Positions 59,254 to 64,000 of a stretch of 64,000 bases of DNA are shown one piece after another. Position numbers and translations under genes: made by a program. The stretch comes from an uncultured Phycisphaerales bacterium (GTDB lineage Bacteria; Planctomycetota; Phycisphaerae; Tepidisphaerales; Tepidisphaeraceae). The notes under the pieces were generated by a model. It did not search any database. It saw nothing but the letters and a program-made list of their open reading frames with translations, and was not told the DNA's origin. The DNA lies in assembly GCA_963755915.1 (NCBI GenBank), contig CAVWLP010000003.1:864001-928000 (forward strand), read 5' to 3'. Every line of letters begins with the position of its first letter. Position 1 is the stretch's first letter.

Positions 59254-59828
59254 ACGTCGCTGCTCATTAATGCCGAATGGTTCACGCGGGATTTGGAGGC
59301 GACTTTTCGCAAGGCGTGCAGCGAATAGTGCGAGAAACCAATCTAAATTATCGTCGGCGAAACCGTCGTTCACGGGCTGAATTAGCTATCCTGTAAAACA
59401 GGTTCTCGGCAAACTTACAAATAAACGCCACCACGAAAATTACCGCGAGCCACTTGTAAGCGCTCATCATCACGATATGAAAGAACGCATCAGCAGCAGG
59501 TTTTACCGAAACCATCGAATCCTCCCTTGCGCTAGGCTCAAAACGATAACAATTGCTGCGTTTGACATGATCTTCCTAGAAAGGCAGACTAAACCCTATC
59601 GAGATTAGGCTGGTCGGTCAAAGGGGTGGCGCATTTCAAGGCGGGGGTAATTGAAAGTAATGCAACCTTTATATCGATTTTGAACTTCGATCCACACCCG
59701 ACCGATGCCGGGAATGTGGGACAATTTGCCCTAAAGAGCAGGTAGCCGAACATCAATGCGGAATACAGGCACTGCTGCAAATCCGCATAAAATATGGTAC
59801 GCTTTTGCGGAAACAACAGGAAAATACA

Positions 59829-60095
59829 GTGGCCACAGTCAAAATCCCCGATGAGACATTAGCCCGGCTGCAAGCTGCTGCTGCCGCGCGTCATGTCTCC
59901 CTTGAAGCCTATCTCGATGAATTGGCGGCATCGGACGCCAACCGTAAGCATGCGCCTTTCGCTCAATTCCACAAAAGCACCCCCGCCGAGCGGGCGGCGG
60001 CGGCCGAATCGATCCGCAATCTCGCGAGCCAAGTGAAGGGCAAATCCACCATTAAAGAATTGATCGCCGATAAGCACGCCGGGCACAAATACTAA
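59829..60095 (+). CDS. Antitoxin (ribbon-helix-helix, VapB-like)
   Basis: TVKIPDETLARLQAAAAARHVSLEAYL; directly upstream of a PIN gene. Confidence 0.7.
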   Translation: MATVKIPDETLARLQAAAAARHVSLEAYLDELAASDANRKHAPFAQFHKSTPAERAAAAESIRNLASQVKGKSTIKELIADKHAGHKY

Positions 60096-60096
60096 G

Positions 60097-60497
60097 ATGG
60101 CAATTGTAGTGGATTGTTCTGTGGCAGCCGCCTGGCGCTCGCCGACGAGCGTACAGCCTGGACAACGGCAGCTTTGCATGCCGCCAGCGTTGAGGGGGCA
60201 ATAGTCCCCTCACTGTTTTGGTACGAGATAAGGAACATCCTGATCATCAATGAACGGCGTGGACGCATTGGCCGGGAGCAATCCGCCCGGTTTCTTATCG
60301 ATGTTGATCCACTGACGGACTTCGACGAAAGCCCTGTTGAGGCGGATGTTCTTGCCCTGGCCCGATCCCATAATTTGACCGTCTATGACGCTTCCTATTT
60401 GGAGTTGGCAAGCCGCCTGGGATTACCGCTGTGCACGCTCGACGCACAACTGATCGACGCCGCCCCGAGAGTCGGCGTCGCCCTCTGGCAACCATAA
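60097..60497 (+). CDS. VapC PIN-domain toxin (frameshift near 60135)
   Basis: MAIVVDCSV, YEIRN, LTVYDASYLELA, LCTLD. Confidence 0.88.
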
Positions 60498-60763: not shown

Positions 60764-61345
60764 CTATCCCGCAATCGGCCCCAAGATCGGCTGTGGCCCG
60801 ATCACATCCGCCGAAAACGTGCGCAGCTCCGCCCCTGGCTCCTTCCACGCGGTCTCGGCGACGCCGAGTTTTTCTGTGCACAGGCGGCCGAGGAGCTGTT
60901 CGCGCGACCAGCCGGTGTCGCGGGCGACCTGGGGGAGGAAAAGCCCGGTGCGGCCGCGGAAGGTGAGGTGGATGCCGTCGCGCGTCGGTTCGAAATCGAG
61001 GGCGGATTTTTTTTTCTCGAGCGGGCCGAGGATACTCAGCTCGAGGGTGAGTTCGGGAAGCTCGCCGCGCGAGACGGGGTTGGTGAGGAAGCGGGCATCG
61101 CCGATGACGGACTCGGCGGCGTTGACGAGGGTTTCGCGAAGGGGGCGGCCGGTGTCGAGGACACCGATGCAGCCGCGCAGCATGTGGGTGCCCTGGCGAT
61201 GGAGGGAGACGAAGCACCCGGCGGGCTGGGCAAACACAGGATCGTCAAGCGTGGGGATCGGGCGCGGGTCGCCGCCAAGCCGGCGGATGATCACGTCGGC
61301 CGCGAAATCGAGGATCTGCTGCTGAACTTGTGTCGAAAAATCCAT
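60764..61345 (-). CDS. AMMECR1-domain protein (AmmeMemoRadiSam protein A)
   Basis: GCFVSL, LRGCIG, DARF, ELSIL, GLFLPQVA. Confidence 0.9.
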   Translation of the reverse strand: MDFSTQVQQQILDFAADVIIRRLGGDPRPIPTLDDPVFAQPAGCFVSLHRQGTHMLRGCIGVLDTGRPLRETLVNAAESVIGDARFLTNPVSRGELPELTLELSILGPLEKKKSALDFEPTRDGIHLTFRGRTGLFLPQVARDTGWSREQLLGRLCTEKLGVAETAWKEPGAELRTFSADVIGPQPILGPIAG

Positions 61346-61399
61346 CGAAAATATTTTTGGCCGGTGGAAGTATACCGAAAAGTACAGGGGGTGGTCACT

Positions 61400-61516
61400 T
61401 TATCCACCGGGTTATGCACCGGCAATCTTTTGGTGGGTCAAGCAGTTAGGGAAATCGGTGGATAACCGAATCGGAATAGAGCGAAAAAATAGGGGAAAAG
61501 GGTGGAGAGTGGATAT
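61400..61516. promoter_or_regulatory. Cluster of DnaA-box-like 9-mers
   Basis: TTATCCACC 61400-61408 (+), TTATGCACC 61412-61420 (+), TTATCCACC 61457-61465 (-), and weaker boxes at 61501-61516. Confidence 0.45.
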
Positions 61517-61691
61517 ATTTTCCTTCGTCGTTGGGCACGAAAGTGACCGGCGAAACAGGAGAACGCTCCTGACAAACAGACCGACTTTCGAAATGCGAAA
61601 GACCGTGCGAAGCAACAAAGAGCGGGCACGGCGAAAGTCGGTGGCCAGCGACCAGGCCACCCGATGAAAGCGGCGTCAAAAACGCCCATTC

Positions 61692-62002
61692 AGGCAATCC
61701 GGGTTAGAGTCGCCGCCAGTGATCTGTCCACCGCGGAGAGAAATCCTCCCGATAAAGGACAGGTTGAGCCCAAAATGCCGCGAGTGTTCTGGTAACGGAA
61801 TGCCGAGCGGCGCGGATCCTAGGAGTGGGCTCAGGATAGCGTAATCCCACGGCCGTCCAGTCGGGAACCCGCTGTGCCGCCCTGTTGGGCGAGCGATCGC
61901 GGCGGCAACAGTCGCGATCGAACCGTCTGTGTGAAGCGGTAGTCAACTGCCCTTTCACGCTGAGCGGACCGAGGCGGGCCCAGGCCCAGGAGCAGGTTGC
62001 CT
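61692..62002 (+). ncRNA. Large structured non-coding RNA, raiA-motif-like
   Basis: Closing helix aggcaatc/ggttgcct; multiple stems with G-U pairs and GNRA loops; no credible ORF. Confidence 0.7.
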
Positions 62003-62062
62003 ACAGAATCGGTTCGATACCAGAATTTGGCGGTTTAAGCCGCAAGGCGCAAGCCGACATAG

Positions 62063-62110
62063 GGCCCACGCGGTGACGTCGCGAGTCACTTCGTGGGCCA
62101 TCTGGTTTTT
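62063..62110 (+). terminator. Possible intrinsic terminator after the ncRNA
   Basis: ggcccacg...cgtgggcc stem; the T-run is 6 nt downstream, so the match is imperfect. Confidence 0.4.
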
Positions 62111-62290
62111 ATCGGGAGGGGAGATTGGGGGAAGGGACCCCCGCTGCTCGTCACGAGAAATCCGAAACCAGAAACCAGAAATCCGAATCAAATCAGAATA
62201 TCCAAATGACGAATGGTCGTCATTCTGGTTTCGTCATTCGGGCTTGATTCGGATTTCTGGTTTCTGGTTTCGGGCTTATTTCGGCAGGGT

Positions 62291-62722
62291 TTACTTCGGT
62301 TTCGTCGTCGGATAGTGCGTCGTCTCCATCAACGCCTTTTCCTGCTGCGCTCGCTCCATAATCCCCGGCGGTGCTTCGCTTTCGGCCGGCTTTGGCGTCA
62401 GCGTGTAGTGCAGATAATGGTGGTCCTTGATGGGAATCGGCAATAGCTCGCTCACTATATCCAGGGGAATCCATTGGTAAATCGGCGCGATGACTTTGGC
62501 CTTGGTCCGGATCGTTTCGTAATCGTCGTGGCGGATCGTGATTTCGTAGGTGCCGTACCAGGTGAAATCGCCGGAGACGGGCGTGCGGCCCCATTCGCTG
62601 TTGTTGAGCTGAACCAGGGCGCCGGGCGGATCGGTCTGGACCGTCAGGATGCGCTCGACGCAGCCGGCGGTCGCGAAAGGCAGAATGGCAACGCATCCGA
62701 GCAGGACCTGGTGAGGCTTCAT
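62291..62722 (-). CDS. PEGA-domain lipoprotein
   Basis: Lipobox TAGC; TDPPGALV...GRTPV...YGTY. Confidence 0.85.
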   Translation of the reverse strand: MKPHQVLLGCVAILPFATAGCVERILTVQTDPPGALVQLNNSEWGRTPVSGDFTWYGTYEITIRHDDYETIRTKAKVIAPIYQWIPLDIVSELLPIPIKDHHYLHYTLTPKPAESEAPPGIMERAQQEKALMETTHYPTTKPK

Positions 62723-62945
62723 GCCGGGAACAAAGTATAGGTTGAGGAGAGTTATTAACTAGGAGTCAAGAAGAAGATTTTATCGGTCACGGTTTTGGCA
62801 ACGAGAAGACGCGGTTACTCGTATAAAACAAGCGGTTCCGCCGCGGGAGCACATGGCTTGCCCTGGTGACGTTCGAAGTGGCCGTGAGGTGGGTAGCAGC
62901 AATGGGGAGTTAACAAAATCGATTGGGGGAGTATCTTGGTGGGTT

Positions 62946-64000
62946 ATGGCTTTGAACCAGGAGCTATCGGATCTCTTCCGCACCTTGGCGGCGCTGATGG
63001 ACATCAAGGGGGAAAGCACGTTCAAGGCGATCGCCTTTTCGAAGGTTTCGCGGATTCTGAAGGATATGACGCTCGACCTGGCGGAGTGTTGCCGGGAGGG
63101 GAAGCTGAAGGATTTGGAGGGGATCGGGCCTTCGAGCCAGCGGATCATCGAGCAGTTTATCGCCAGCGGGAAAAGCATTGATTTCGAGGAAGTCGCGGCC
63201 AGCGTGCCGGCGGGACTCATTCCGATGCTGGAGATCCCCAGCCTCGGGCCCAAGACGATCGCCCTGCTCTGGAAGGAGCGGAATATCACCACCCTGGAAG
63301 AGCTGGTGGCGGCGATCGAAGGGAAGAAGCTGGAGGGGATCAAGGGGCTGGGAGATAAAAAGATCGAGGGGATCAAGCAGGGGATCGCGCTGCGGGCGCA
63401 GGCAACGGGGCGGATTGGGATCGTGCGGGCGATGGAGATGGGCGGCGCGATTCTGGAAGCCGTCAGAAAATTCACCGAGGTTCGGGAAGCGGAGCTGGGG
63501 GGAGCCTCCGGCGCCGGCGCGAAACCATCGGCGACATCGACATCGTCTGCTCGTTGAAAAATGATTCGGCCGGTGAGCGCGTTTCCGCCGAATTCGTAAA
63601 GCTGAGCGGCGTGCAGTGCGTGCTCGGCCAGGGATCGACCAAGGCCAGCGTGCTGATGGAAGGGGGCACACAGGTCGATCTGCGGATCGTGCCGGCGGCC
63701 AATTTCGGCGCGGCCCTCCAATATTTCACCGGCTCCAAAGAGCACAACACCAAGTTGCGCGGGCTGGCCCAGCAGAAAAACATGACGCTGAACGAGTGGG
63801 GGCTTTACAGGAATGAGGATTACGACAAGTCGGAGAAGAAGACAGGGTTTCCGCCGAAGGCAAAGCCGGTGGCGAGTAAGACCGAGGAGGATATTTACAA
63901 GGCGCTGGGGATGGCGTGCATGGAGCCGACGCTGCGGGAAGACCGCGGCGAAATCGAGGCGGCGATTGCCGGGAAGCTGCCGAAGGTCATTAAGCTGGAA
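62946..64000 (+). CDS. polX: DNA polymerase X family protein (partial; frameshift near 63505)
   Basis: HhH motifs GIGPS and SLGPK; GSLRRRRETIGDIDI after the shift; QVDLR, YFTGSKEHN, LNEWG, LREDRGE. Confidence 0.9.

Follow-up and report, generated by a model that had tools for sequence, protein, structure and literature searches.

A large, highly structured non-coding RNA that probably defines a new family in Tepidisphaeraceae

The locus and the extent of the RNA gene

The DNA analysed here, referred to as the window, is a stretch of 64,000 nucleotides (nt) from the genome of an uncultured Phycisphaerales bacterium of the family Tepidisphaeraceae (contig CAVWLP010000003.1, positions 864,001 to 928,000); coordinates refer to the window unless another contig is named. 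Towards its end, a gap of 945 nt separates an AMMECR1 gene (60764-61345) from a PEGA-domain gene (62291-62722), both on the minus strand. This gap holds the interval 61692-62002, which an initial annotation, made from the letters alone, had described as a structured RNA of ~310 nt, either a relative of the raiA-motif RNAs or a new large class. The flagged interval turns out to be the 3' two-thirds of a longer RNA of ~575 nt, and we consider it very probable that the locus is a separately transcribed gene, encoded on the strand opposite to both flanking genes, for a non-coding RNA of a new family in Tepidisphaeraceae, large (~575 nt) and highly structured, for which a trans-acting mechanism is proposed below.

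As the initial annotation had stated, the interval contains no credible open reading frame (ORF), being overlapped only by ORFs of 41-84 amino acids (aa) in the ORF list, and close relatives are separated within it by indels of 1-2 nt (alignment A1, 17 rows). Conservation extends well past its borders. BLAST searches with the whole gap against loci of the genus and family delimit a conserved block at ~61393-62117, more than twice the flagged length, and most homologues match an nhmmer profile of this block over its positions 3-711. From 5' to 3', the block consists of three 9-mers, a TATATT box, a conserved stretch from CGUCG (~61526) onwards, and a hairpin with a U-run ending at 62110 (Table 1). 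Homologues have a median length of 571 nt (range 495-1015), and their length differences are concentrated in few places (following 61651, 61785 and 61836), the pattern expected of peripheral stems in a structured RNA. Two versions of ~1000 nt carry large insertions in the H8 arm (G133 and G124), and one lacks ~80 profile positions, 388-469 (G145, L164). The gene occurs once in the 6.6-Mb genome. With its extent given by conservation, long-range helices and RNA contigs, it is an independent, separately transcribed unit.

Table 1. Features of the RNA gene and its upstream region (window coordinates)
Feature	Position	Strand	Remarks
Three conserved 9-mers	61400-08 TTATCCACC; 61412-20 TTATGCACC; 61457-65 GGTGGATAA		50-120 nt upstream of RNA start
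Putative -10 box TATATT	61514-61519	+	at least 31/56 homologues; variants TATACT, TAAATT, TATAGT
Whole RNA	61526/61537-62110	+	~575-585 nt; 3' end at U-run 62106-62110
5' domain, outside flagged interval	~61526-61690	+	H1, and H2 enclosing H3, with H4; 0/200 shuffles reach each helix
H1	61528-38/61543-53	+	GAAA loop; 7/10 pairs changed on both sides
H2	61581-89/61633-41	+	8/9 pairs changed on both sides
H3 (within H2)	61601-08/61626-32, 61612-13/61622-23	+	2/9 pairs changed on both sides
H4 hairpin	61672-76/61683-87	+	5/5 pairs changed on both sides
L1	GCUCCUG 61565-61571 / CAGGAGC 61987-61993	+	5/7 pairs changed on both sides
L2	61642-46/61851-55	+	invariant
L3	GCGAC 61648-52 / GUCGC 61709-13	+	3/5 pairs changed on both sides; 0/200 shuffles as high
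L4	ACCCG 61659-63 / CGGGU 61700-04	+	3/5 pairs changed on both sides; 0/200 shuffles as high
PK-A	AGGCAAUC 61692-61699 / GGUUGCCU 61995-62002	+	8 bp; 94% canonical
PK-B	ACCGA 61968-61972 / UCGGU 62009-62013	+	outside L1 and PK-A; 5 bp; 100% canonical
H5/H6 arm 61721-61765	H5 61721-26/61760-65; H6 61732-39/61745-51	+	changed on both sides: H5 5/6, H6 7/7 pairs
H7/H8 arm 61766-61832	H7 61766-71/61827-32; H8 61784-91/61796-803	+	H8 with GUAA loop; changed on both sides: H7 4/6, H8 7/8 pairs
Near-invariant GAUCCUAGGA in H7/H8 arm	61815-24	+	core UCCUAGGA is its own reverse complement
Most conserved domain	61860-61986	+	H11 and H12 close a junction of hairpins H13, H14 and H15
H11	61860-65/61979-86	+	1/6 pairs changed on both sides
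H12	61869-73/61973-77	+	2/5 pairs changed on both sides
H13	61876-82/61887-94	+	6/7 pairs changed on both sides
H14	61895-903/61911-19	+	7/9 pairs changed on both sides
H15	61923-42/61947-67	+	12/19 pairs changed on both sides
3' element	62019-62110	+	base helix 62019-24/62101-06 enclosing a variable and a conserved hairpin, then UUUUU 62106-10

Fold and covariation

Fifty-six non-redundant homologues, 58-95% identical to the window, were aligned with MAFFT and analysed with RNAalifold and with a scan of all column pairs for stacks; an independent counting tool was run on A1. One unpublished genome (G014) supplies one of the 17 rows in A1 and in A2, one of the 56 homologues and one of the 55 positive genomes reported below, and no claim depends on it.

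The dense plus-strand folding claimed for the 311-nt interval was borne out: its predicted energy on that strand is -146.2 kcal/mol (z -4.34, with none of 100 dinucleotide shuffles as good), against z -0.94 on the minus strand, where 19 of 100 shuffles do as well. For 61526-62110 the energy is -267.8 kcal/mol on the plus strand (z -6.51), against z -3.22 on the minus strand. Many conserved G-U pairs are compatible with the plus strand only.

Covariation among the homologues carries the structural argument, and compensatory changes lie far above those in shuffled controls. The model comprises 161 pairs in 22 helices, 94.5% of which are canonical over the 56 homologues, compared with a mean of 84.6% and a maximum of 85.2% in 200 shuffles. 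Changes on both sides are seen in 107 pairs (59.8 in shuffles) and in 923 cells (273 in shuffles), and pairing falls mostly to 20-60% when partners are slid by one or two columns. The count on A1 agrees, with 95.5% paired against 91.3 +/- 0.2 and two-sided changes in 47 pairs where 19.3 +/- 2.8 are expected; none of 500 shuffles reached the observed values on all five measures, and sliding partners by one to three columns left 33-42% paired. Every helix exceeded 200 of 200 shuffles except the invariant L2, H9 and H10.

On this evidence, the predicted RNA is built of two domains, joined by the long-range helices L1, L3 and L4 and by two pseudoknots, PK-A and PK-B. Compensation in L1 spans several positions at once, CUAGCG facing CGCUAG in some homologues and CUUCGA facing NCGAAG in others. 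PK-A pairs the strands aggcaatc and ggttgcct, which had been taken for the closing helix. The pairing itself stands, since two-sided changes affect six of its eight pairs (41 cells; 0/200 shuffles as high and slid controls 18-48% canonical); its closing role does not, because the helix crosses L1, L3 and L4 and is thus a pseudoknot. In PK-B, three pairs changed on both sides (0/200 shuffles as high), and the column-pair scan recovered a stack at 61965-72/62009-16.

Seven of the eight pairings first proposed for the interval are supported by compensatory changes among the 56 homologues. Besides aggcaatc/ggttgcct, these are gatctg/caggtt, gagccc/gggctc, gtgttctg-GTAA-cggaatgc, gccgccc/gggcgagc (61876-82/61887-94), 61895-903/61911-19 and 61923-42/61947-67. 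The eighth, ccgcc(61713)/ggcgg(61973), shows no compensatory change, and its strands have better partners at 61709-13/61648-52 and 61973-77/61869-73. Two helices of the single-sequence fold were likewise set aside: 61776-81/61807-12 is canonical in only 23-25 of 56 homologues, in a poorly aligned region, and the local hairpin 61556-61/61566-71 keeps only three central pairs, its changes being explained by the long-range L1.

Some unpaired strings are nearly as constant as the helices. In the 61860-61986 domain, UCCAGUCGGGA is found in 46 of 56 homologues, ACCGUCUGU in 48 and CCGAGGCGGGCCC in 26+13. The GAUCCUAGGA string of the H7/H8 arm (GATCCTAGGA) is exact in 48 of 56, and two others carry GATCCATGGA / GAUCCAUGGA with self-complementarity kept.

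The 3' element looks like a branched intrinsic terminator. Of the 14 pairs in its conserved hairpin (62063-77/62085-99), 13 show two-sided changes, its base helix is canonical in 32-55 of 56 homologues depending on the pair, with some GC-to-CG and AU-to-GC exchanges, and a U-run follows in most homologues; a scan for the simple terminator consensus did not call it. The string GGUUCGAUACC (62011-62021), which overlaps PK-B and the base helix of this element, resembles the tRNA T-arm or T-loop motif (consensus GGUUCGAAUCC).

Detection of the RNA in metatranscriptomes

In 18 metatranscriptome runs from 13 studies of soil, root and leaf litter, 60-87% of the RNA's sampled 31-mers are present. Four runs of four studies (X1, X5, X8 and X14) were compared over 61100-62500 as contigs, not raw reads. 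One X1 contig reproduces 61536-62066 without a difference, an X14 contig extends to 62110, and adapter letters abut position 61535 (three X8 contigs), 61537 (X5) and, on the 3' side, 62077 (one X5 contig). From these edges, the cDNA starts ~8-10 nt past the first covarying pair and ends in or at the terminator element. The 5' end may thus lie at 61526-28, with the first bases lost in the library, or at 61535-37 through processing. The adapter types at the X5 ends fit an RNA of the plus strand, provided that the library was strand-specific. In the four runs no contig covers 61100-61522 and almost none 62134-62500, although such gaps were not counted as evidence, since missing cover by contigs proves nothing. 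Metatranscriptomes of soil, root and litter contain the RNA as a single discrete molecule.

Some X8 and X5 contigs join ~61721-28 to 61837-46, skipping 110-124 nt (arms H5-H9), with only 21-30 letters on the sides of the joint. They may come from environmental relatives lacking these arms or from other organisms, or they may be artefacts.

Distribution

DNA searches found one copy in each of the 12 other genomes of the genus and further copies in six other genera of the family; 24 genomes that belong to the class but to other families gave no match. With model R1, built on 61847-62003, 55 of 141 Tepidisphaeraceae genomes were positive for the RNA, which corresponds to 32 of 76 genera and, among high-quality genomes, to 24 of 72 (the order-level search covered the same 141 genomes). 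The 150 genomes searched from the rest of the phylum yielded none. The broader model R2, made for the same segment from 95 sequences, was positive in 7 of 20 family genomes and gave one match among 130 other genomes of the class; this match (G405, 31 bits) lies within a 943-aa ORF on the same strand and is attributed to chance.

A 19-base signature matched 78 stretches among 185,579 species genomes. Forty-one of them hold the RNA, and all 41 are labelled Tepidisphaeraceae, Tepidisphaerales, Phycisphaerales, Phycisphaerae, Planctomycetota, Humisphaera or Fontivita; the other 37, from Actinomycetes, Proteobacteria and others, showed no RNA by profile and are chance matches. A longer signature was matched by 60 metagenome contigs. 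The initial guess of a planctomycete host also agrees with the titles of the homologue records, which name Tepidisphaeraceae, Phycisphaerae or Planctomycetota. As far as has been searched, the family is confined to Tepidisphaeraceae, which are soil planctomycetes. A record of the named cultured strain Fontivita pretiosa B-254 holds a copy (L089), so that genetics, probing and cryo-electron microscopy are directly feasible.

Comparison with known RNA families

Searches of the window with Rfam 15 gave no match at gathering level, and none on 61670-62030 at an expectation value (E) of 10 or below, consistent with the new large class that had been put forward as one option. At E<=10 the window yielded sodF_sRNA (18.8 bits, on the terminator hairpin), spurious microRNAs on a downstream repeat and no others; no model of GOLLD, ROOL, OLE, HEARO, group I/II introns or riboswitches matched.

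The other option, an expanded raiA-motif RNA, deserves closer attention. It would make the Tepidisphaeraceae RNA a highly diverged member of the raiA family that shares its core fold and presumed function and has acquired a 5' extension and extra hairpins, which we regard as very unlikely. The likeness consists of a few short strings in the same order, namely GGuuGaA..AGUCgAcGcCag, GAuCCAcg, a CCgccc-loop-gggcGAG hairpin preceded by a 5-bp helix, and aaCCAGG. The two RNAs are also alike in being stand-alone, single-locus and pseudoknotted, with a helix joining (in raiA, closing) their 5' and 3' parts; raiA RNA is reported to be very abundant (PMC12968392), and the Tepidisphaeraceae RNA is present in many RNA libraries. 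The motifs named in the initial annotation do occur in the consensus of true raiA RNAs, but here they stand in other structural contexts: GGGUU and GUCGC find their partners in the 5' domain (L4 and L3), whereas in raiA they pair with the 3' end.

Four independent tests of membership (covariance model, reciprocal model, profiles in both directions and a shuffle test) were negative. The raiA model, RF03072, gave no match at E<=10 on 61670-62030, at this locus in a search of the whole genome, or in 18 homologous loci. Its best matches elsewhere in the genome scored 14.2 and 10.7 bits (gathering threshold 101.3), against 108-166 bits for true raiA RNAs in 31 of 61 Actinomycetes genomes used as a positive control, one fetched example scoring 152 bits. 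Model R1 gave a true raiA RNA 5.4 bits (E 0.72), below noise matches in the same locus. A profile of 30 true raiA RNAs reached at best E 1.3 on the 56 homologues, at inconsistent places, and the reverse comparison at best E 8.8; four of the 30 rows (G350, G357, G338 and G346) come from unpublished genomes, on which the raiA tests do not depend. In collinear alignment with 10 true raiA RNAs the 311-nt stretch scored z -1.2, and 54 of 60 dinucleotide shuffles scored at least as high.

The hallmarks of raiA in and after P1 are missing too. The P1a-P1b-P1c stem has conserved GU and GGU bulges (>97% conserved), followed after P1c by a GAA(A) tetraloop-like junction (PMC12968392). In PK-A the corresponding helix has eight continuous pairs without such bulges, with one C before the next paired 5' strand and the L1 strand CAGGAGC preceding the 3' strand; at the position of the junction the letters are AGA (61706-08), of which 61707-08 vary among homologues. 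The raiA core comprises P3a-P3b with an asymmetric loop, P4, PK1 and PK2; two pseudoknots are found here, and no element could be mapped onto that core, to which sequence profiles show no correspondence. Finally, raiA RNAs measure ~200 nt and belong to Bacillota and Actinomycetota, in contrast to ~575 nt in Planctomycetota, where the RNA has an extra 5' domain pairing into its core. The resemblance built on short motifs does not survive testing. That the locus is not next to raiA had been noticed from the outset and is confirmed by its neighbours, AMMECR1 and the PEGA-domain protein.

Upstream elements and neighbouring genes

The third of the upstream 9-mers, GGTGGATAA, is the reverse complement of the first, TTATCCACC. 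Of the 56 homologues, 41 contain the motif GGTGGATA and at least 38 the TCCACC core of box 1; in most of them, the match to an nhmmer profile that includes the 9-mer region begins at position 3-11. Clusters of at least three TTATNCACN within 400 bp occur twice in the genome, here and at C2:1376284-1376567. The 9-mers are probably an operator or regulator site for a DNA-binding protein, and they resemble the DnaA box.

Downstream of them, the TATATT box precedes the first covarying pair (61528) by 7-9 nt and the starts of the RNA contigs by 16-18 nt. From this conserved box we infer that the RNA has its own promoter and would start a few bases after the box.

A cis-acting element, whether a leader or riboswitch, a 3' untranslated region, an operator of AMMECR1 or part of a replication origin, is marginally less probable again than membership of the raiA family. 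AMMECR1 is the divergent upstream gene at 25 of 56 loci, and the three DnaA-box-like 9-mers would suit an operator or an origin; yet the 9-mers are still conserved at loci without AMMECR1, the RNA is flanked on either side by genes of the opposite strand, and the downstream gene is not conserved, differing even within the genus. The RNA also has its own terminator-like end, and a single contig runs through almost all of it. As to replication, an origin at the locus was rejected: both true dnaA homologues lie on contig C2 (C2:2252977 and C2:1091682), the cumulative GC skew does not turn here, and there are only three boxes. About 40 near-identical ORFs of 304 or 334 aa on contigs C2 and C3 match the DnaA ATPase profile weakly; we presume them to be helper ATPases of a multicopy insertion-sequence family. 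In 14 of 56 loci the gene converging on the RNA from downstream belongs to one protein family, a candidate regulator that by eye appears TetR-like.

Housekeeping and mobile RNAs

Still fainter is the case for a divergent housekeeping RNA (6S, RNase P, tmRNA or signal recognition particle (SRP) RNA) missed by the standard models. The genome, which is 81% complete, does lack a match to the 6S model RF00013 at E<=1. Contig C2, however, carries RNase P RNA (294 bits), tmRNA (138 bits) and SRP RNA (62 bits), each over its cut-off, and ARAGORN reports no tRNA or tmRNA at the locus. In 45 of 141 family genomes the 6S model matches 200-250 nt elsewhere in the genome; the RNA described here is also present in 18 of these 45, three of which (G088, G135 and G029) exceed the 6S cut-off. 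The RNA is thus not a 6S substitute, because the two coexist in 18 genomes. It may share with 6S and Ms1-type RNAs a stable, apparently abundant, trans-acting character and a promoter of its own. A 6S RNA is typically a rod with a central bubble, whereas the fold here is multi-branched.

Least credible of all is a repeat, a miniature inverted-repeat transposable element, an insertion-sequence-associated guide RNA or a prophage RNA of the GOLLD/ROOL kind: a dispersed palindromic repeat does lie 40 nt downstream (62150-62290), and a few genomes have two or three copies (three in G085, L154, L155 and L158; two in G146, L161 and L167; two in G010), but the RNA is single-copy in this genome, its upstream neighbour is the same throughout the genus, the genes that recur around it include no transposase, IscB, TnpB or reverse transcriptase, no GOLLD, ROOL or HEARO model matches, and the 19-base signature has no match in 2.9 million viral contigs.

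Interpretation and proposed role

With these alternatives weighed, the preferred reading is a separately transcribed gene of a new structured RNA family. The RNA has what is generally expected of a large structured non-coding RNA: covariation, no coding potential, promoter- and terminator-like ends, and detection as RNA.

Several observations count against this reading or limit it. About 60% of family genomes are without a copy found, under strict filters and with many incomplete metagenome-assembled genomes (MAGs), and no neighbouring gene is common to all 56 loci, so that a universally linked gene is lacking. There is no recognisable -35 box, and a scan with the sigma-70 consensus did not call a promoter. 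The helices L2, H9 and H10 never vary and hence receive no support from covariation (L2 is neither supported nor refuted), and the MAFFT alignment is unreliable in the variable arms. The 5' end is ambiguous, with covarying pairs from 61528 and contigs from 61535-37, and evidence drawn from contigs leaves strand, exact ends and level short of proof. Word depths of up to 382,519 (X8) and 8,221 (X5) suggest high abundance, but they sum over relatives and are a poor measure of expression. The role is a proposal only, and the dimer contact considered below is a thin hint, from one palindrome and two palindrome-preserving sequences among the 56.

We tentatively propose, and as a whole hold it slightly less probable than an even chance, that the RNA acts in trans as a stable architectural RNA, rather than as a cis-regulator or by simple antisense pairing. 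It might be the scaffold of a ribonucleoprotein or form an RNA-only assembly, as is now known of raiA, OLE, ROOL and GOLLD. The near-invariant single-stranded strings UCCAGUCGGGA, ACCGUCUGU, CCGAGGCGGGCCC and GAUCCUAGGA would then serve as contact surfaces, and the self-complementary UCCUAGGA is a candidate RNA-RNA dimer contact. Transcription would probably be governed by a protein binding the upstream 9-mers.

OLE, ROOL and GOLLD (which we take to be RF01071, RF03087 and RF01998, respectively) are close to the Tepidisphaeraceae RNA in size class (500-800 nt) and, like it, have many covarying helices and occur in a narrow range of lineages. Unlike them, it is chromosomal, with no phage context and no linked protein genes found. 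These three RNAs form RNA-only homo-oligomers (PMC12286853), and the near-invariant self-complementary loop of the Tepidisphaeraceae RNA could, by analogy, allow homo-oligomers too. That the RNA is indeed a self-assembling homo-oligomer held through the UCCUAGGA loop, or a new large ribozyme, with a synthesis tied to replication or growth through DnaA bound at the 9-mers, appears unlikely; if true, abundant soil planctomycetes would possess a lineage-specific, highly expressed RNA whose biochemical role is new to bacteria.

Very few bacterial non-coding RNAs longer than 500 nt show a dense, conserved tertiary architecture, and every one of them has opened up new biology or new RNA structure. 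The RNA biology of planctomycetes is almost unexplored. Our literature searches found no paper joining Tepidisphaeraceae with non-coding RNA and nothing relevant on Phycisphaerae with non-coding RNA or Rfam, and for structured non-coding RNAs with covariation in Planctomycetes they returned a single paper (Weinberg 2010).

Other features of the window

Just beyond AMMECR1, at 59805-60497, an ORF resembling the ribbon-helix-helix protein FitA (24.2 bits, below the Pfam cut-off of 27 bits) is accompanied by a PIN-domain ORF. The two form a probable toxin-antitoxin pair, present in this genome alone among the loci compared.

The downstream repeat at 62150-62290 contains a near-perfect hairpin of 128 nt, which drew the spurious Rfam matches to plant microRNAs. 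It recurs at ~50 places in the genome and occupies other positions in loci of the same genus.

Further downstream, a gene for a family-X DNA polymerase (62853-64000) is split over two frames near 63554-63557, with the HHH domains in one ORF and the pol-beta thumb in the next, reflecting either a frameshift or an assembly error in this long-read MAG.

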